Of a stretch of DNA of 32,000 nt, positions 3-9,752 are shown in pieces; position 1 is the first letter of the stretch, and every line of letters starts with the position of its first letter. This DNA comes from Candidatus Omnitrophota bacterium. Lineage in GTDB: Bacteria; Omnitrophota; Gorgyraeia; Zapsychrales; JANLHA01. The DNA is taken from assembly GCA_963662715.1 (NCBI GenBank), contig OY759724.1, positions 1,650,001 to 1,682,000 of the forward strand, given 5' to 3'. The notes beneath the pieces were generated by a model. It saw only the letters and a list, made by a program, of their open reading frames with translations, was not told where the DNA came from and ran no database searches. The position numbers were made by a program, and so were the translations under genes.

Positions 3-1124
3 TATAGTTTTTTTGCCTTCTTTATCGCGGTTTACTGTTATTGGCTCAGCAGCCTTTACCCGCTTATTATCCTGGAGAAAGCAGCTGTGTGGTCGGTTTT
101 TCTGTTAAGTGTTCTTATCATCAACCTGATTATCTGGGTCGGATATCTGTCCATTAGTTTGCTGGTCTATGTCTCGTATTTTCTTCTGCTCGTGATTTCC
201 TGGCAGACGTTTAACCTGGTTATCCTCATTACCGAACAGGCGCATTGGCAGCTTGCCCTGGCTCTGGCGAGTGTGGCTTTGCTTCTGCTGCTCGCTTGGC
301 GAATGACGGTCTTAAATGAGGACAAGTTTGAATACGGCTATATTATTTCCTGGCCGCATAAGGAATTCCTCCACAATCAAATCAAAGCCGGAGAACTTTA
401 TGTCCGGGCGATACATTTTATTAAAAGCCGGCTCGGGCTTAAGCCCCGCAGAGTTGCCGTTCCTCCTTATCCGAGAGAGGCGGCCCTTTGGCGGAGGGCG
501 TACCATTGGCATTATTTGGATTTGGCTGAATTGAAAAGTATTTGGATTCTGCTTGTGGTTTTGACGCCGGTCTATGTTTACCGCATCCCTGGGATGTCTT
601 TTTTTCATGACTTTTACAGGGATCCTTACAGTAATTTTTTGCTTTATGCCATTGCCCCTGTCCTGATCGTTTTATGCTCGAATTATCGTAACATGAGCAC
701 CTGGCCGCATGATCTTCTGAAACCGGTCCGAAAAAAAGACTTTATTAAAGAGCAGGGGGCGGGACTTTTGGCGGGGCTGGGGCTGTACTGGCTGTTGTTT
801 GTGATGTACTTGGTCTTTATCCCGCATTGCGTGCTTCAACCCGCTGCCTTGTTGAGCAGCCGGTTCTGGGGATATTTGGCTTTGTCAGGAAGTTTTGCCT
901 TCTTGACATTGTCCTGGGTCATTTTTATGAGCACTTATTCATCCCGGCCCTGGTTTGTCCTGGCTAACGGAAGCGTTCTTGTGGGGCTGGCGCAGTTGTT
1001 GTTTGTGGTGGCCGGGAAACAGCCTTTCATGATCAATATGTTGAATAGTGCTCTGTGTTGGGTAGGCATTTATTTATTTTTGAAATGGGGTTACCGGAAA
1101 TGGTGTCAGGCTGAGACAGCCTAG
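3..1124 (+). CDS. Polytopic integral membrane protein of unrecognised family; the 5' end probably lies upstream of the window
   Basis: The frame is open from nt 3, with no stop before the first listed start at 87. The extra 28 codons are hydrophobic (YSFFAFFIAVYCYWLSS...). The protein has many hydrophobic segments throughout. Its stop, TAG 1122-1124, sits within the AGGAGGG Shine-Dalgarno of the next gene, so the two are probably co-transcribed. Confidence 0.6.
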   Translation, partial: YSFFAFFIAVYCYWLSSLYPLIILEKAAVWSVFLLSVLIINLIIWVGYLSISLLVYVSYFLLLVISWQTFNLVILITEQAHWQLALALASVALLLLLAWRMTVLNEDKFEYGYIISWPHKEFLHNQIKAGELYVRAIHFIKSRLGLKPRRVAVPPYPREAALWRRAYHWHYLDLAELKSIWILLVVLTPVYVYRIPGMSFFHDFYRDPYSNFLLYAIAPVLIVLCSNYRNMSTWPHDLLKPVRKKDFIKEQGAGLLAGLGLYWLLFVMYLVFIPHCVLQPAALLSSRFWGYLALSGSFAFLTLSWVIFMSTYSSRPWFVLANGSVLVGLAQLLFVVAGKQPFMINMLNSALCWVGIYLFLKWGYRKWCQAETA

Positions 1125-2941: not shown

Positions 2942-3884
2942 ATGAGAAAGAGTCTTATCCCATTGCTGCTTGTCGTAATGGTCTTTTATTCCTGTTCTTG
3001 CGAAGAAAGGCCTGGCAGAGAAGATCCTGTTGCTTTCCGAGATAACAAACTGACTTTCAAGCTGGAAAACGTTCCTCTAGCCGAGGAGCCTTTGGAAGAG
3101 ACGGATTATGCAACAGTCATAAAGAACATTTCTTACGAATTGCTTGAGCCTCAAGACGGTCATTTTATAACGGATGAGCAGATAGCCAAAGTTAAACTTG
3201 AAGCCAGCGGATTCAAAAGGAAAGAAATCATTTCTTCCCATAACCATCCTTTTATAAGTGCGCTGACATATTCATTCAATGATCATCGCCCGTTAATCCT
3301 CTCCCCGGATATGATATGGCTTTTGATTTGTCAGGGGTTCGGGGAACATGTTAATGCCAACGCTGAAGAGCTAAGAGACAGATTTGTCGATCATCCCGGC
3401 CAAAAAACACTCGTTGTTAAAAGGCATGATTTTGTTAAAGGTCATGAGGCGAATCCCTGGCCCGAAGTTTTTCCGTTATTTTCAAAACAAATAAAGAAAT
3501 ACTCTAATAATGATTTGTATGACATCCTGGTTGCAAACTATTCTACAACCACGCAAGCCGAAAAAACCGCATATGAAATGACATTTATGTACACCAATAA
3601 ATTTTATTTTGCCTATAGATTCGAAACCTGGTGCGGAATTCCGAGCATTACTTTAGAAGGGACGAAAGAGGACTGGGAAAAGATTCTTTAAAAGAAAGCT
3701 TGAGTTCGGGGATTTTCCGTCCGGCATATATATTGCACCCCTGGAATGGTGTTATTTGGGTGAGACTTTCGATATGAAATTAGTGGCGGGCTTTGTAGGC
3801 ATGACCCAGGATAAAGATACCAAAGCCGTACGCCCGGAAATAAACTGGATCATATACGATGTTACTGATGTTTCGGAAAAATAG
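2942..3884 (+). pseudogene. Disrupted DUF4419-like lipoprotein gene: an N-terminal 249 codons, then a C-terminal remnant in another frame
   Basis: The ORF 2942-3691 begins with a lipoprotein-like signal (MRKSLIPLLLVVMVFYSC). It carries blocks I recall from DUF4419 (HPFISALTYSFNDHRPLILSPDMIWLLICQGFGEHVNANAEELRDRFV; CGIPSITLEGTKEDWEKI) and then stops. A different frame, open over 3657-3884, encodes ...FGDFPSGIYIAPLEWCYLGETFDMKLVAGFVGMTQDKDTKAVRPEINWIIYD*. That looks like the family's C-terminal end, but it has no start codon of its own. Confidence 0.55.
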
Positions 3885-3890
3885 TGACCT

Positions 3891-4685
3891 ATGAAATCAA
3901 ATTTGTCTCATAACGTATTGAAATTGACTCTTCTGTTTTCGGGCGTCTCTACTTTGGGCCTGTTTATAGCCATGGCGATACATGAATTGGGTCATATCAT
4001 TGTTGTCCTTTATTACGGGGGGCGGGTGACAAATCTTCATTTGCAGCCGTTTTCCCGTTCTGTCGTATCGTATTCCGTCCCGGCATCAGCGTCACAGTTA
4101 TGGATCGCCTCCGGGGGCATTGTTTTCAGCATGATCATGGGCGGACTCGCTTTTTTGCTCGCACGTAAAATACGGTCTCCATACGGGTTGCCGGTCATTA
4201 TGACAGGAGTCGCGGCTTTCATCGGGAATGGTTTTTATTTTGTTTTTGGTGCAATCATGTACGGCGGCTTCGGTGATCCGGCAAAGTTAATGGCTTCGGG
4301 GTGCCCGGCCTATGGCCTTGTGATTTGGGGCGGTGTCCTTTTTATTCTTGGCTGCCTAGCTTTCCTTGCGAATCTTCCTTTGCTCGGGATCGGTCCGGAA
4401 GATTCCTGGGGACGAAGATCTGTCATCTTTGCCGGAGGTATTGCGCCTTATTTGATATGCGTGATGGTTTATAACGCTGTTTTTGATGAGACGCGCATTC
4501 CGCATTATTTTACTTTTATTGTTGGAACTATTTTTATGCTGTTGGCCGGGGCTTTTATGACCAGGTTTTTGTCTGAGCGTTTGAGATGGCTCCAAAGACC
4601 TGCTGTAAGAGTTTGTTGGAAGCATGCATGGTTTGCTGTATACTTAAGTGTGCTTGTGATTACGATAGAGCTGGTTTCTTTTTAG
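3891..4685 (+). CDS. Polytopic membrane protein with an HExxH motif (M50B / site-2-protease-like putative metalloprotease)
   Basis: HELGH lies inside the first hydrophobic segment (GLFIAMAIHELGHIIVVLYYGG). About 6-7 further TM segments follow. A later GFGDPAKL segment could supply the third metal ligand. Confidence 0.6.
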   Translation: MKSNLSHNVLKLTLLFSGVSTLGLFIAMAIHELGHIIVVLYYGGRVTNLHLQPFSRSVVSYSVPASASQLWIASGGIVFSMIMGGLAFLLARKIRSPYGLPVIMTGVAAFIGNGFYFVFGAIMYGGFGDPAKLMASGCPAYGLVIWGGVLFILGCLAFLANLPLLGIGPEDSWGRRSVIFAGGIAPYLICVMVYNAVFDETRIPHYFTFIVGTIFMLLAGAFMTRFLSERLRWLQRPAVRVCWKHAWFAVYLSVLVITIELVSF

Positions 4686-4767
4686 CGGAGCCTGCCGTAA
4701 AGCCGTCAAACTAAACGAAAGAAAACCGGATGACCGTGTTTATTTCATAATTTTTTAAAAGTGTTCT

Positions 4768-5478
4768 ATGCAGATTTTATTTTCATTTTTTCTGGCCGTA
4801 TTGCCGGCTTTGCTTTTAGTCCGGTATTTTTACAAAGCTAATCCGGCCCCCAAAGCCCTGATCATTAAGCTGTTTCTTCTGGGGATTATATATACTCTTC
4901 CGGTTTATATTTTAGAAGAGATTTTGGCCCGCTTTAATGTGTATACGGAAGGCTCTTTTATCCTGTATTATTTTTTTGAAGCCTTTATCGTTGCCGGGCT
5001 GTGCGAAGAATACATCAAGTTAAGAGTCGTTAAGAAATACGGATATAATTCCCCGTATCTGCAGGGAGAAGGCGACGGGATCATCCTTACTGTTGTGGCC
5101 AGTATGGGTTTTGCCTGTATGGAAAATATTTTGTATGTTATCAATAATTCCTGGTATATGGCTTTAGCCCGGGGGTTTACGGCGGTTCCCATGCATGCGA
5201 TTTGTTCCGGAGTCATGGGATATTATCTGGGGCTCGCCAAACGCGCCCGGATAGCCCAAGAACCGCAGACAGAAAAATATCTTATTAATAAAGGATTATG
5301 GCAGGCCATTTTAATCCACGGGTTATATGACTTTTTCTTGTTCATTTCTCCTATCCTGGGTTCAGTTTTTGCGACATTCACCGTTCCCCTTATGCTTTGG
5401 TATTATTTTTCCTTGAAAAGAACAATTCATAATGCTGTAGAGGATAGACTGCGGTTTTTTAAGGAGGGACAGGCATGA
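4768..5478 (+). CDS. prsW: PrsW-family intramembrane protease
   Basis: Ordered motifs of the PrsW/CPBP-like fold in TM helices: LPALLLVRYFY near the N-terminus, EEYIK (CEEYIKLRV), FACMEN, HAICSG, HGLYDF. Confidence 0.8.
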   Translation: MQILFSFFLAVLPALLLVRYFYKANPAPKALIIKLFLLGIIYTLPVYILEEILARFNVYTEGSFILYYFFEAFIVAGLCEEYIKLRVVKKYGYNSPYLQGEGDGIILTVVASMGFACMENILYVINNSWYMALARGFTAVPMHAICSGVMGYYLGLAKRARIAQEPQTEKYLINKGLWQAILIHGLYDFFLFISPILGSVFATFTVPLMLWYYFSLKRTIHNAVEDRLRFFKEGQA

Positions 5479-5921
5479 GTTTTATTTATGCTGTTTTTGC
5501 TTATCCCGCTGCGCAAATGGCGGCCTTTTTCTGGGGGGCAGAGCTTCAGTGGCTGAAAGGAGAGGAAATTCGGATATTGATCTCTCCGCAGCCTATTCAA
5601 GTCACAGCTTCCTGCAGCGGTTTTGGATTTTTTTCTTTATTTTATATTTATATTGTCTTTTATGTGGTACGGTATTGTCAAAGATCCCGGATGTGGGCTG
5701 CGGTCCTGATTCCTTTGCCGGCCGTTTATTTAGCTACCGTTGTAACTAACGCAGCCAGGATGATTTGCGCTTATCATATTGCCCGTGTCAGCGGGGCCTG
5801 GTTGCCGTCTTTTTTTCAGCCCATTATTCATATGGGGGTCGGGGTGGCTTTCTTTCTCGGTGTTTTTATCGTAAGCACTTTATTGTTGGAGAGAATATTG
5901 CCTTATGGAAGACAATCATAA
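5475..5921 (+). CDS. Minimal (148 aa) exosortase/archaeosortase-family protein
   Basis: All-TM protein carrying, in order, VTASCSGFGFFSL (Cys), VVTNAARMICAY (Asn-x-x-Arg) and IIHMGVGVAFF (His). This is the order and context of the exosortase catalytic residues. AAGGAGGG lies 6 nt upstream of the ATG, and the ATG overlaps the prsW stop (ATGA, 5475-5478). Confidence 0.7.
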   Translation: MSFIYAVFAYPAAQMAAFFWGAELQWLKGEEIRILISPQPIQVTASCSGFGFFSLFYIYIVFYVVRYCQRSRMWAAVLIPLPAVYLATVVTNAARMICAYHIARVSGAWLPSFFQPIIHMGVGVAFFLGVFIVSTLLLERILPYGRQS

Positions 5922-8900
5922 AATGACGATCCTGCCGGTCTCTGTGAAGAGCCGCATTCTTGTCTTTTGGGTTTTTATCCTGCCTCAATTTGTCCTTTTC
6001 CTTTTGAATGTTTTTTCGTTCTGGATTATCCGGGAGGACATGGCCGCTTCCCATCTTTACAAAGTCTTTACGATAGCCGGCTGTGAGATTTTTCTTCTGC
6101 TTATCATGTGCGTCCTGTGGATGTCCTGGAAGCGTGCGGGGCTAAATTCCATTCCCTGGAAATGGAACTGGTTTTTTCTCCTGATGCATATGGCGTATCT
6201 CTGGTACGTGAGCTATGAGATTCCCGCCGTCATTCCTGCGGGAACCGAAGCCTGGATTCTTGACCGGGGCCAGGTTATTTTATCCCAGTATGCTTTCATG
6301 ATGCCGGCTTTGTTTTATTCGGCCTTGCGCTTAGCGTGTTTTGAGACGCGTTTAACCCGGGGGGCGGATATCGGACGCAGCCTCCTGGTTGCGGTCGGCA
6401 TGCCGATGCTCTGGTATACAGCTATGCTGGGGCTGTCAACCTTTTACCGCTGGACCTGGATGTGGTTCCCGACGGCCATCGGAATGGTGTTCTTTGTCGG
6501 AAGCAGCGTCATCACACTCATAGCCCTTATCCGCCTAAGCGTTTTGATTTATAGCTGGTATCAGGGCCGGGATGCCTGGACTCACAATACCGTTATTGCT
6601 CTGGTCGCTTTGGTTGGGCCTTTGGCCGGGTTGCTTTTAAACCGGAACATCCCTTTCCCGGCTGACTTTCAGTCAGAAATCATTTATGGGCTGGCCGTCG
6701 TTAACGGGCTTATCCTGCTTGTCCCTTCGATCTTTAGAATGAAATATCAGCGCGTACGGCTGTTTTTGCGTGCATGGGCGTATCCTTTTACCCTTTATTT
6801 CTTTCTCGTGTTTTTACCTTTTCTCCCTTTATCCCTGCTCGCCATTTGTGCCTTGGGATTGGGATTCCTTTTTTTGATCCCGGTGCTTTTGTTTTTACTT
6901 CATACGAAAATACTTATTGAAGATTATCAGTCCTGCGCGCAGCAAGGTAGCCGTATGACCGCTGTTGCCCTTATCTTGTCGGCATGCCTTGTTTTGCCCG
7001 GTGCTTTTGTCGCTGAGACGCTTTGCGATAAAACCGCCGTAGAGCAGGCTCTCGATTATGTCTACGCATCTGATTATGAACAACCTCAATGGTATCCCGG
7101 GTCTGCAAGAGCTGTTGAGCGGACTTTAATAAAAATGCGGCAGGCTAAAGACGGGGCCCAATTGCCGTACCTTTCTGCGCTTTACAACCGGATTGTTTTT
7201 CACGGTATGGTTCTGCCTAATTCCAAAATGGAGTATATGTTCCGGCTTTTTACCGGAAAGTCTTTAAACGATGTTTATGAAAAATCGGCCGGCTGGCGCA
7301 GCCGTATCCGAGGGAGAGATGGTGCCATGTCCGCGGGCCGGCGCAGAAGGCCTGAACGGGACCGGAATGTTGTTCTTTTTTCAACGACCAAGACCAGCCG
7401 GAATGAGGGGGTTTCAACCGTAACGAAAATGGTGTTTTATTTTATAAATATCGGTCATGATAATGCGGCGGAATTTTTCAGGGAATGCACGCTTCCCCCG
7501 GGCGTTCTGATTACCGATTTTCGTTTGCAGCTTAATAACGAACTGGTGCCGGGGCAAATATTCGAACAGAAAACGGCCACATGGGTTTATCATATGATCC
7601 GGGACTGGACCCGGCGGGATCCCGGCCTCATTGTCTATAAGTCTCCGCAAGTGTTTGAGCTCAGCATTTTTCCTTTTCGCACGAGAGAAACCCGCTATGC
7701 CGAAATTGAATTTACCTATCCGCGTGATGCGGCACCGGTCATCTATATCGGCAGAAAAGGGATTGCTTTGCGTTCCCGGGATGAGGGCCCGCCCAGCCCG
7801 CCTGTCCCGTTAACGGGCCAGGACGCTTCAGGGAACAATTATTCGCTGGTTTTCCCCGAAATGTTGGAGTCTCTGGCAAAGATTAAAAGAAAGCCTTATT
7901 TGCATTTTATTCTGGATTTTTCCCTGGGAGAGGATCCGTCCCAATATGCGCAACAGATGATGGATGTTGCCGCTGAGTTCCCGGATATCCATAAGGGGAA
8001 AATCAGTGCGGCCAATTTTGAAGTTGAATCTTTGACCCGGGATTTTATAGATTTCAGAAACAGCGATTTAATAAAACAACATCTGCAACAGGTCCGGCTC
8101 CCGTCCCGCGGGGCTCTGGAGCTTTCCAGAGTTTTTAAGCACGAATTGACGATGTATCAATCCCGTCTTGAAAGCGAGGATTTTGCCTCATGGTCCGAGT
8201 ATCCTGTCTTTGTTGTTTTATCGCAGAAAAAAGATAACGTCATATCCCCGGAAGACATGTCGTATTTTCAATTCCTGACTCCGGAAAATGACAGTTATTA
8301 TATCAAAACGCCGGATCAGCCGGCGCAGAAACATCCGCTTTTCCGGGCGGTTCTAGACCCTTACCTGCCGGAAGATGTGGTTGTCTTCAGGAGAGGCCCT
8401 TATGTGTCATTCGCTCCCGGACCGAGATGGGAGAGATGGCAATGGCATGTTCTTATAAACCAGGGAAAGGGGAAGCAGCAGCCTTTGGAGGTTTATGATC
8501 CCAATCAAAAATATTTTGTCCCGATTTTATACGAAAGGATTCCCGGGGGCTCTTTTTACGGGCAAGCCCTGGGGCTGTACGTGAAGAATTATAAGGACAT
8601 TCTGAACCCTTCTAAACTTAAGCGGTCGCTGCCGGCACTCGTGCAGCAGAGCAAGTCCTTGGGGGTTTTGATCCCGGCCACAGCTCATATTATTGTCGAA
8701 CGCAGTTCCCAGTGGAAAACTCTTCAGTTGAGAGAATTTCAGCGGTTGCATAGTCAGCAGGGCCTGGAGTTTGAAGAGGACTTTGAAACACCTGCCCCGC
8801 CTTTCTGGCTGCTCGCGATAGCGTGCTTTTTGTGGCTCCGGAGCAGACGGGCGGGCGCAAAACATCCCATGATACCCTTCCCGGTTAGCGATTGTTGTTC

Positions 8901-8931
8901 GTCCTCCACGAAGAAAGCTGAAAAAGAATAG
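5905..8931 (+). CDS. Giant membrane protein with MSEP-CTERM-like architecture: ~11-TM N-terminal domain, VIT-like and degenerate vWA-like ectodomain, and a PEP-CTERM-type C-terminal sorting signal
   Basis: Residues 1 to about 365 are almost entirely hydrophobic helices. A VIT-like block spans roughly nt 7380-7740 (VFYFINIGHDNAAEFFRECTLPPGVLITDFRLQLNNELVPGQIFEQKTATWVYHMI ... FELSIFPFRTRETRYAEIEFTYP). LHFILDFSLGED resembles a degenerate vWA MIDAS strand. The C-terminal part reads ETP-APPFWLLAIACFLWL-RSRR (nt 8785-8850). The start is ATG 5905 (17-nt overlap with the upstream gene) or ATG 5923 (1 nt after its stop). Confidence 0.7.
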   Translation: MEDNHKMTILPVSVKSRILVFWVFILPQFVLFLLNVFSFWIIREDMAASHLYKVFTIAGCEIFLLLIMCVLWMSWKRAGLNSIPWKWNWFFLLMHMAYLWYVSYEIPAVIPAGTEAWILDRGQVILSQYAFMMPALFYSALRLACFETRLTRGADIGRSLLVAVGMPMLWYTAMLGLSTFYRWTWMWFPTAIGMVFFVGSSVITLIALIRLSVLIYSWYQGRDAWTHNTVIALVALVGPLAGLLLNRNIPFPADFQSEIIYGLAVVNGLILLVPSIFRMKYQRVRLFLRAWAYPFTLYFFLVFLPFLPLSLLAICALGLGFLFLIPVLLFLLHTKILIEDYQSCAQQGSRMTAVALILSACLVLPGAFVAETLCDKTAVEQALDYVYASDYEQPQWYPGSARAVERTLIKMRQAKDGAQLPYLSALYNRIVFHGMVLPNSKMEYMFRLFTGKSLNDVYEKSAGWRSRIRGRDGAMSAGRRRRPERDRNVVLFSTTKTSRNEGVSTVTKMVFYFINIGHDNAAEFFRECTLPPGVLITDFRLQLNNELVPGQIFEQKTATWVYHMIRDWTRRDPGLIVYKSPQVFELSIFPFRTRETRYAEIEFTYPRDAAPVIYIGRKGIALRSRDEGPPSPPVPLTGQDASGNNYSLVFPEMLESLAKIKRKPYLHFILDFSLGEDPSQYAQQMMDVAAEFPDIHKGKISAANFEVESLTRDFIDFRNSDLIKQHLQQVRLPSRGALELSRVFKHELTMYQSRLESEDFASWSEYPVFVVLSQKKDNVISPEDMSYFQFLTPENDSYYIKTPDQPAQKHPLFRAVLDPYLPEDVVVFRRGPYVSFAPGPRWERWQWHVLINQGKGKQQPLEVYDPNQKYFVPILYERIPGGSFYGQALGLYVKNYKDILNPSKLKRSLPALVQQSKSLGVLIPATAHIIVERSSQWKTLQLREFQRLHSQQGLEFEEDFETPAPPFWLLAIACFLWLRSRRAGAKHPMIPFPVSDCCSSSTKKAEKE

Positions 8932-8981: not shown

Positions 8982-9752
8982 ATGAACAGATTATTTTTAA
9001 TCCGCAAAATCATGTTCGTCGGATTTTGTCTGACGTTTTTGCTGGGTTTCTCGGATATTAAATTGCAGGATATCGAAACAGCTGTGATTGAAAAAGATTA
9101 TGAAACGGCCAGGAATCTTGCCCAGACATTCCTCGCCTCCAATCCCGGCCGCGCCCAGAAGAATGAAGCTTCTTATTATCTGGGGTTAAGTGAATTGTTT
9201 TTGGGTGAGCCGGAGAAAGCCAGACAGATATTTGTGAAGATTATTGAAAGTGACCCGGATGCCCCGCTGAAGGGGAAAGCCTATATCGGCGAAGTTGACG
9301 CTTACTTTTTTCTGGAGAAGTACGAGGTCGCTTTGCATAAAGCAGAGGCTTTGCTGAATAAACGGGCGGGCCGGGGATTCTCGGGGTTAATCTATCTGAA
9401 AATGGCCCGTGCCCATCTGAAGCTTGGCCGTTGGGACGAGGCCCGGAAGTATTTAAATAAAATTATCTCTTATGCCCCGGACAGTGTGGAAGCTCACCGG
9501 GCAAGGCAGCTTCTCCAGGAGCGGCAGTTTTTTTCCGTGCAGTGCGGTTCCTTCCTGCACCGTTCTCATGCCGAGAATCTGGTGGAAGAATTGAAAGGCC
9601 GGGGGGAATATGCCTATATCGTTGAGACCGTCGATAAAGACGGTACGGGATTTTACCGGGTGCGGGTCGGTCAATTGTCAACCCTTATTGAGGCCAAAAA
9701 TTTAAAAAAGAAATTAGCTGATTTAGGTTATCCTGCCTTGATTTATCCTTAG
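8982..9752 (+). CDS. TPR-repeat plus SPOR-domain envelope protein
   Basis: N-terminal signal/anchor (IMFVGFCLTFLLGF). TPR-like repeats (YYLGLSELFLGEPEKARQIF; YLKMARAHLKLGRWDEARKYL). C-terminal SPOR fold signature (FFSVQCGSFLHRSHAENLVEELKGRG ... GFYRVRVGQLSTLIEAKNLKKKL). Confidence 0.8.
   Translation: MNRLFLIRKIMFVGFCLTFLLGFSDIKLQDIETAVIEKDYETARNLAQTFLASNPGRAQKNEASYYLGLSELFLGEPEKARQIFVKIIESDPDAPLKGKAYIGEVDAYFFLEKYEVALHKAEALLNKRAGRGFSGLIYLKMARAHLKLGRWDEARKYLNKIISYAPDSVEAHRARQLLQERQFFSVQCGSFLHRSHAENLVEELKGRGEYAYIVETVDKDGTGFYRVRVGQLSTLIEAKNLKKKLADLGYPALIYP

Follow-up and report, generated by a model that had tools for sequence, protein, structure and literature searches.

The locus described here lies within a 32,000-nucleotide (nt) stretch of DNA from a Candidatus Omnitrophota bacterium (contig OY759724.1; hereafter the window) and comprises a small exosortase-like gene (5475-5921; 148 amino acids, aa) that overlaps the gene of a large membrane protein of the MSEP-CTERM family (5905-8931; 1008 aa), preceded by genes for an M50-like protein with an HExxH motif (3891-4685; 264 aa) and for a PrsW-family protein (4768-5478; 236 aa). 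All 27 predicted genes of the window lie on the + strand, to which every coordinate below refers. A scan of 185,579 species genomes returned 233 relatives, from which 80 loci (labelled with an L and a number) were retained, and the data covered the 32-kb window and the relatives' loci over up to ~23 kb. Six close genomes, namely the window, L001-L003, L090 and L091, are referred to as the clade; L081 and L082, which come from activated sludge and were recovered by a metagenome scan with PrsW, are the same organisms as L001 and L002, respectively. The original prediction, made from the window alone, had read the PrsW-like gene, the sortase gene and its target as one apparently dedicated sorting and maturation module. 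Our comparison makes it probable that the sortase and target genes are an Omnitrophota member of the catalogued XrtK/MSEP-CTERM sorting system and that the two protease genes are lineage-specific insertions beside it.

The predicted gene junctions were confirmed by direct reading of the sequence. The PrsW stop codon and the sortase start codon share ATGA (5475-5478), with a Shine-Dalgarno-like AAGGAGGG (5461-5468) 6 nt upstream of the sortase ATG, and the sortase gene ends with TAA at 5919-5921, close to ATG codons at 5905 and 5923. We took 5905 as the target start because a GGAG lies ~11 nt upstream of it and because the target genes of relatives overlap the sortase gene by 7-19 nt; with this start, the two genes of the window share 17 nt. 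An in-frame stop precedes the sortase ATG with no other start codon in between, which rules out a longer N-terminus for this reading frame. The ATGA overlap is found in the window only, the gap between PrsW and the sortase being 13-15 nt in the five relatives. Other junctions of the window are similarly tight: the unrelated ROK and LptD genes likewise overlap by 4 nt, and gaps of 1 nt and 12 nt separate the TPR-SPOR gene from MiaA and MiaA from HflX, respectively.

The 1008-aa protein is a member of the MSEP-CTERM family, scoring 378 bits against NCBIfam TIGR04286 (cutoff 150; E 8.7e-113) in a match that spans residues 19-977 and profile positions 8-908 of 920. Membership of the XrtN-system VIT family TIGR04477 does not apply (29 bits, cutoff 250), the weak match to that model being limited to part of the membrane domain (aa 226-397; E 2.9e-7). 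Its closest relatives are encoded by metagenome-assembled genomes of Candidatus Omnitrophota (52-54% identity), and the NCBI name 'MSEP-CTERM sorting domain-containing protein' is already carried by several Omnitrophota relatives as well as by relatives from Chthoniobacterales, Kiritimatiellota, Gammaproteobacteria and Bacteroidota. A profile built from 31 homologues retrieved 854 representatives of 50% identity clusters at E<=1e-30.

The AlphaFold2 (AF2) model of the target (predicted local distance difference test, pLDDT, 84; predicted template modelling score, pTM, 0.83) bears out the predicted architecture of about 11 transmembrane helices, a VIT-like block and a degenerate vWA-like block. 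Helix counts here and for the sortase were taken from the AF2 models. The target model comprises an 11-helix membrane domain (aa 18-387, nt 5956-7065), a helical linker, a VIT-like beta-sandwich (aa 489-621, nt 7369-7767), a degenerate vWA-like alpha/beta domain (aa ~636-880, nt 7810-8544), helices at 884-948, a low-confidence linker at 960-966 and a separate helix at 967-985. The top Foldseek match in the PDB was inter-alpha-inhibitor heavy chain 1 (ITIH1, 6fpy; E 1.5e-10, probability 1.00, ~600 aligned columns), followed by isolated vWA domains, and the metal-ion-dependent adhesion site (MIDAS) position of the target reads DxSxG, with D671 and S673 conserved. The VIT model PF08487 scored 22.9 bits on the window protein, below its cutoff of 26.5, and is carried by most homologues; the VIT assignment follows from these homologues and from structural equivalence to ITIH1, the vWA-like domain being recognised through structure only. 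Eleven helices ahead of it would put the ectodomain in the periplasm and leave the RSRR cluster near the C-terminus in the cytoplasm, in agreement with the topology proposed originally.

The target ends in a tripartite sorting signal (8788-8850) consisting of T962-P-A-P965, the hydrophobic helix PFWLLAIACFLWL and the basic cluster RSRR (979-982), with 26 residues following the cluster, as had been noted. The signature 'ETP' proposed earlier was one position off register: the homologous motif is TPAP, which occupies the alignment columns of TPEP, VPEP and SPEP in the Planctomycetes-Verrucomicrobia-Chlamydiae (PVC) phyla and of MSEP in Bacteroidota. Among 187 full-length homologues of the 1008-aa protein, these columns read MSEP in 48, TPAP in 35, APAP in 21, TPEP in 16, SPEP in 11, SPAP in 9 and VPEP in 7; the final proline is kept in 180 and the tripartite pattern fits the tails of 169, so that the PEP-CTERM-type layout is a conserved one. 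Judged from this alignment, the motif consensus is x-[PS]-[EA]-P, a PEP variant directly before the helix and the basic cluster, of which TPAP appears as a common form within the MSEP-CTERM family. The idea that the locus follows the same design as the MSEP-CTERM systems with a different signature is not supported: its target is itself a TIGR04286 member, and TPAP sits in the MSEP/TPEP/VPEP columns.

The assignment of the 148-aa protein to the exosortase family was upheld, as it scored 32.2 bits against the exosortase/archaeosortase signature TIGR04178 (cutoff 23), and a Pfam scan of it returned no match. All 76 aligned homologues have Cys47, Asn92 and Arg95, and 75 of them have His119 and Gly123; the mean column identity of the 60-sequence alignment is only 23%. 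The candidate catalytic residues, Cys47 (nt 5613-5615), Arg95 (nt 5757-5759) and His119 (nt 5829-5831), are contained in the segments SCSGFG, TNAAR(M) and IIHMGVG that had been singled out beforehand as their carriers. The AF2 model (pLDDT 82, pTM 0.73) has four transmembrane helices and a short beta-hairpin, arranged as helix 2-20, a hairpin at 23-43 predicted to be periplasmic, and helices 50-67, 70-105 and 114-141. The prediction puts the arginine-rich loop 66-72 and the C-terminus on the cytoplasmic side; judged from helix order and loop charges, Cys47, Arg95 and His119 would each sit at the periplasmic end of a different helix, all on one face of the membrane. The sortases of the window and of its closest relatives are 147-148 aa long. 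For L090, the European Nucleotide Archive record calls a 166-aa gene in an incorrect frame between PrsW and MSEP (6555-7055), where the actual sortase reading frame is 6568-7014, with 148 aa and a TTG start.

Adjacency of the two genes is widespread. An iterated hidden Markov model (HMM) of the small protein detected a sortase homologue in 75 of the 80 loci, and in nearly all of the 71 with mapped sortase positions, on which the adjacency counts are based, the sortase gene lies directly upstream of, and usually overlaps, the target gene. The paired loci span Omnitrophota, Verrucomicrobiota, Lentisphaerota, Kiritimatiellota, Planctomycetota, Gammaproteobacteria and Bacteroidota. On the basis of this adjacency, the predicted existence of an apparently dedicated pair outside Bacteroidota holds, the loci coming from at least seven phyla with Bacteroidota among them, and one enzyme with one adjacent target is the pattern that Haft has described as a 'dedicated system' (bioRxiv 10.1101/2023.06.07.544157). 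Across phyla, only the Xrt-MSEP pair itself is common, and the genes upstream of it are clade-specific. The identification of the pair is built on observed family membership, residue conservation, gene adjacency and predicted folds.

Several observations weigh against assigning the pair to the XrtK/MSEP-CTERM system. The best specific exosortase match of the 148-aa protein, XrtK TIGR04287, reached 38.2 bits, short of the cutoff of 55, and spans only profile positions 33-159 of ~163 rather than the full length, and about 30 N-terminal residues of other XrtK-like proteins, roughly one helix, are absent. The sortase model was built on 4 sequences only, because a word-index homology search with the 148-aa protein found itself only and a search with the 60-sequence profile added three further proteins; a PDB sequence search gave chance matches only and Foldseek returned nothing below E = 1 from the PDB, so that neither search found a solved exosortase for comparison. 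In the target, alanine replaces the glutamate of PEP and MSEP, and the 26-residue tail, which is non-conserved and modelled with low confidence, exceeds the length usual in classic PEP-CTERM signals. Because PrsW and the sortase gene stay closely spaced throughout the six clade genomes, the two might still be linked in function. Literature searches on XrtK, MSEP-CTERM and exosortase with VIT found no relevant paper, and because no experimental paper was found, cleavage of an MSEP-CTERM target by XrtK is an analogy.

As for the missed cutoff, Bacteroidota partners of MSEP-CTERM proteins scored 133-151 bits against TIGR04287, and all seven non-Bacteroidota partners tested scored 30-44 bits, suggesting that the XrtK model or its cutoff is too narrow. 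From gene context, the window sortase is clearly orthologous to XrtK even though it misses the strict cutoff. These seven partners carry only the generic name 'exosortase/archaeosortase family protein'.

The 236-aa protein encoded directly upstream is, on firm sequence grounds, a PrsW-family glutamic-type intramembrane protease: it scored 108.9 bits against PF13367 (cutoff 23.5), and its motifs EEYIK, FACMEN, H143 and HGLYD (HGxYD) are invariant in four aligned orthologues. Against the PrsW equivalog NF033739 it scored 111.6 bits, below the cutoff of 225. The 264-aa polytopic protein is best described as M50-like, or site-2-protease-like, only. Its scores against PF02163 (23.6 bits, cutoff 27.2) and PF13398 (23.7 bits, cutoff 26) are both below cutoff; its sole NCBIfam match is to the daptide biosynthesis HExxH intramembrane metalloprotease (E 3.4e-4; 19.9 bits against a cutoff of 300), and its sole PDB sequence match is a weak one to the Methanocaldococcus jannaschii site-2 protease (S2P; 3b4r, E 0.012) across the HExxH helix. 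HELGH (31-35; H31, E32, H35) and D129 of GFGDP are invariant in four aligned orthologues.

The distribution of these two genes is narrow. Iterated HMMs detected PrsW and M50-like genes only in L001-L003 among the 80 loci; L090 and L091 also carry the arrangement, which brings the genomes with PrsW next to the sortase to six. The metagenome scan with PrsW recovered the same organisms with the full set of genes as well as seven distant orthologues (39-53% identity), which had no Xrt, MSEP or M50-like gene nearby; their scanned neighbours were carB, radical S-adenosylmethionine (SAM)-SPASM, alkaline phosphatase, Lnb and YitT genes. Although L083 had hinted at an ancestral PrsW-MiaA-HflX arrangement, this idea was rejected, as the neighbours there are radical SAM-SPASM and alkaline phosphatase genes. 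When the 124 genes closest upstream of the Xrt-MSEP pairs were scanned with Pfam, PrsW occurred three times, always in clade relatives, and no CPBP, rhomboid or M50 family reached two members.

The clade itself is syntenic with the window over ~16 genes. L002 and L003 share with it the TM462 gene, MiaA, HflX, MerR, Hsp20, ClpB, HrcA and GrpE (L002 also the start of DnaK), and L001 is syntenic as far as its contig extends. Since this synteny includes MiaA, HflX and ClpB, protease adjacency within the clade is not independent evidence. Sequence identities within the clade set PrsW (70-78% to the orthologues in L001-L003 and L090) near MiaA (65%) and HflX and ClpB (77-80%), whereas the sortase (47-51%), MSEP (52-53%) and the M50-like protein (40-44%) evolve faster. 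The claim that the pair is hard-wired to PrsW, which holds for six syntenic genomes only, with distant PrsW orthologues located elsewhere and no recurrent protease neighbour, is not supported beyond this one clade, and the same applies to the proposed M50 partner, which is confined to the same six genomes and scores below the Pfam cutoffs. Co-occurrence of the four genes was likewise only partly upheld: their order is kept in the six clade genomes and is found in none of the other Xrt-MSEP loci.

The genes further upstream bear on the likely history of the locus. The window opens with the 3' 371 codons of a TM460-type polytopic membrane protein gene of ~462 aa (TM462; 3-1124), which is cut by the window edge; by tblastn, residues 90-460 of its L001 and L090 orthologues align to window positions 3-1115. 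In ten Omnitrophota loci, this gene stands after a GntR regulator and an ABC ATPase and before Xrt-MSEP. The GntR-ABC-TM460 cassette, whose first two products are PmtR-like and PmtA-like, was found in L005, L007, L009, L012, L001-L003, L090 (461-3121) and L091, and its association with Xrt-MSEP is broader than that of PrsW. In the window, L090 and L091, the TM462 gene is separated from orf69 by a B12-binding radical SAM gene (1136-2578), whose best matches fall far below the HpnR, HpnJ and BchE cutoffs and which is absent from L001-L003. The next gene, orf69 (2647-2856), encodes a 69-aa, apparently two-helix membrane protein without a Pfam or NCBIfam match and is the best-conserved gene of the neighbourhood, at 81-91% identity in the six clade genomes and 38-51% in L005, L007, L009 and L012. 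Because in these four loci it stands beside Xrt/MSEP without the proteases, orf69 tracks the sortase pair rather than the proteases and may be a genuine third component of the Omnitrophota version of the system.

A broken DUF4419 gene follows (2942-3884), in which the reading frame 2942-3691 covers profile positions 1-146 of 303 and a 42-codon fragment in another frame (3756-3884) is possibly the remnant of the C-terminus; it is absent from all five relatives and is likely a pseudogene or the remnant of a recent insertion. L005, L007, L009 and L012 have the arrangement GntR-ABC-TM460-(orf69)-Xrt-MSEP without a PrsW or M50-like gene, and in the clade these two genes lie between orf69 and Xrt. 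In the simplest and most likely reading, GntR-ABC-TM460-orf69-Xrt-MSEP is the older Omnitrophota operon, and the protease genes were inserted into it in one lineage. The proposed insertion coincides with the loss of the first helix of the sortase, which is seen in the same clade that has PrsW adjacency.

Directly downstream of the MSEP gene lies a gene for a TPR protein with a peptidoglycan-binding SPOR domain (8982-9752). It is next to MSEP in six of six clade genomes, but with homologues in no more than 6 of the 80 genome loci it does not qualify as a general partner of Xrt-MSEP. Further genes downstream in the window include a MerR-Hsp20-ClpB cluster, an HrcA-GrpE-DnaK-DnaJ heat-shock cluster and, beyond these, AccD, two GGDEF proteins, ROK and LptD. 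The GC skew is positive along the whole window (1-32000), and tRNA and Rfam scans of the window found nothing. In Verrucomicrobiota (L013, L022, L038, L045) and Bacteroidota (L074, L075, L078), an ArsR/HTH_34-type winged-helix regulator recurs upstream of the pair, preceded by a membrane protein of 210-230 aa without a family match; the Verrucomicrobiota loci of this set have one or two proteins of ~400-500 aa upstream, some with weak Ldi-like matches.

From the predicted structures, we propose the following topology and mechanism. The 11 N-terminal helices of the target would lie in the inner membrane, with the VIT and vWA-like ectodomain in the periplasm and the C-terminus held by a twelfth helix that leaves RSRR in the cytoplasm. 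The sortase would span the membrane four times, with Cys47, Arg95 and His119 facing the periplasm level with the TPAP motif that abuts the last helix of the target. By analogy with ArtA and exosortases, from which we infer cleavage, its position and the fate of its product, Cys47 would attack at or beside TPAP; the attack would remove the helix, the basic cluster and the tail, and the new C-terminus of the target would be either released or transferred to an acceptor. The PrsW and M50-like proteins would probably be general membrane or envelope proteases.

An alternative explanation, which we consider unlikely, is a single dedicated maturation module of four genes that unites the M50-like gene and PrsW with the sortase and its target. 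In it, one or both proteases would act on the target or clear the helix-plus-tail peptide released by the sortase, much as in a site-1/site-2 cascade or in the clearance of signal peptides by site-2 proteases. The four genes are co-directional and close, with an ATGA overlap and a strong Shine-Dalgarno sequence in the window and a gap of 13-15 nt in five relatives; six genomes share the order M50-like, PrsW, Xrt, MSEP, and PrsW adjacency is found in the same clade as the sortases without an N-terminal helix. Our literature search found nothing on coupling of PrsW and exosortases, but a functional link is conceivable because fusions of EpsH with CAAX proteases exist (PMC1569441) and PrsW is distantly related to the CPBP/CAAX proteases (PMC3482391, PMC5874806). 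However, the adjacency occurs within a single clade with synteny over ~16 genes, outside of which the Xrt-MSEP loci have no PrsW or M50-like homologue and no CPBP, rhomboid or M50 family reaches two members among the 124 neighbours. The PrsW orthologues at 39-53% identity stand beside unrelated genes, and PrsW is conserved like the housekeeping genes (70-78%), whereas the sortase, MSEP and the M50-like protein are at 40-53%. Close, co-directional packing also carries less weight in a window where 27 of 27 genes lie on one strand and ROK and LptD overlap by 4 nt as well, and, as the original prediction had observed, no sigma or anti-sigma domain was found by Pfam among the scanned window genes.

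The M50-like and PrsW genes could instead belong with the B12-radical-SAM gene and orf69, as a separate cassette for the maturation of a membrane peptide that merely abuts the sortase pair. The contiguous order radical SAM, orf69, M50-like, PrsW in the window, L090 and L091, the very high conservation of orf69 (81-91%) and the daptide HExxH metalloprotease as the only NCBIfam match of the M50-like protein (E 3.4e-4) would fit such a cassette, but that match has 19.9 bits against a cutoff of 300, L001-L003 have orf69, M50-like and PrsW without the radical SAM gene, and orf69 stands beside Xrt/MSEP in L005, L007, L009 and L012 without either the radical SAM gene or the proteases, which makes this explanation very improbable. 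We give hardly any credence to a reading without processing, in which the C-terminal helix would simply anchor the target in the membrane as its twelfth helix and the 148-aa protein would act as a chaperone or other non-catalytic partner. In its favour are the lack of XrtK experiments in the literature search, a motif without the Glu of PEP and a sortase that is shortened relative to its family; against this, seven phyla show next to no variation of Cys, Arg and His at a mean column identity of only 23%, the motif proline is kept in 180 of 187 homologues and the tripartite layout is held despite a freely varying tail. Assignment of the two genes to the XrtK/MSEP-CTERM system, with the proteases as later insertions, accordingly remains the explanation that we favour.

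Overall, the pair is one that is already catalogued, seen here in Omnitrophota with a TPAP variant and a shortened sortase, and its range extends beyond Bacteroidota to Omnitrophota, the PVC phyla, Gammaproteobacteria and others. This wider range, the x-[PS]-[EA]-P motif and the narrowness of the XrtK model are useful for annotation, and they can guide the choice of a cultured organism for work on how a minimal exosortase of four or five helices acts on a target that stays anchored in the membrane; culturable carriers include Hymenobacter, Flavobacterium and Opitutaceae/Coraliomargarita (L030, L031, L078). The PrsW and M50-like neighbours are a weak lead rather than a finding. We think it improbable that one Omnitrophota clade recruited PrsW and a site-2-protease-like enzyme to an XrtK-type sortase, to clear the helix-plus-tail peptide or to process the target in sequence. 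If it did, the arrangement would be a split-gene counterpart of the EpsH-CAAX-protease fusions, and the loss of the first sortase helix in exactly that clade would reflect a physical complex of PrsW and sortase.

Among known systems, the EpsH-CAAX protease (PF02517) fusions, of which four were reported by Haft in 2006 (PMC1569441), share with the window locus an exosortase linked to an intramembrane protease of the CPBP/PrsW/APH-1 superfamily, PrsW being a distant relative of the CPBP/CAAX proteases (PMC3482391, PMC5874806); the window differs in having separate genes, a protease of the PrsW branch and a link that occurs in six genomes only. The cascade of Bacillus subtilis, in which PrsW (site-1) and RasP (site-2) cleave RsiW, resembles the window in that PrsW-family and M50-like HExxH genes are both present. 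In the window, however, no sigma or anti-sigma gene is found among the scanned genes, the two protease genes form no conserved pair elsewhere and the M50-like protein is below the Pfam cutoffs. The heavy chains of the inter-alpha-trypsin inhibitor, which combine VIT and vWA domains, provide the best structural match of the window ectodomain (6fpy), from which the window protein differs in its ~10% sequence identity, its degenerate MIDAS (DxSxG) and its nature as a bacterial polytopic membrane protein. These heavy chains lose a C-terminal propeptide and are then joined via their new C-terminus to a glycan.

Closer to the window pair are the XrtA/EpsH system for PEP-CTERM proteins and the ArtA system for PGF-CTERM proteins, whose membrane enzymes with Cys, Arg and His presumably remove the helix of their targets (PMC1569441; bioRxiv 10.1101/2023.06.07.544157). 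They have in common with the window the Cys/Arg/His membrane enzyme family and a tripartite C-terminal signal whose motif abuts the helix, and differ in having many targets per genome, compared to one adjacent target, and enzymes of 260-500 aa, compared to a minimal sortase of four helices. Unlike with XrtA and ArtA substrates, cleavage would not release the window target, because it is itself a polytopic membrane protein. The XrtN system (TIGR04476/TIGR04477) likewise pairs a dedicated exosortase with a VIT-domain membrane target, but XrtN has ~400 aa and the 148-aa window sortase has no XrtN match. The XrtK/MSEP-CTERM system (TIGR04287/TIGR04286), defined on Bacteroidota, differs from the window in host phylum (Omnitrophota), motif (TPAP rather than MSEP), sortase score (38 bits against a cutoff of 55), the first ~30 sortase residues, which the window lacks, and the clade-specific neighbours orf69, M50-like and PrsW. 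It shares with the window the target family itself, a small sortase encoded directly upstream of or overlapping a target of ~950-1000 aa, the Cys / Asn-x-x-Arg / His-x-x-x-Gly signature of the enzyme, and a target composed of a membrane domain, a VIT domain, a vWA-like domain and a tripartite tail.

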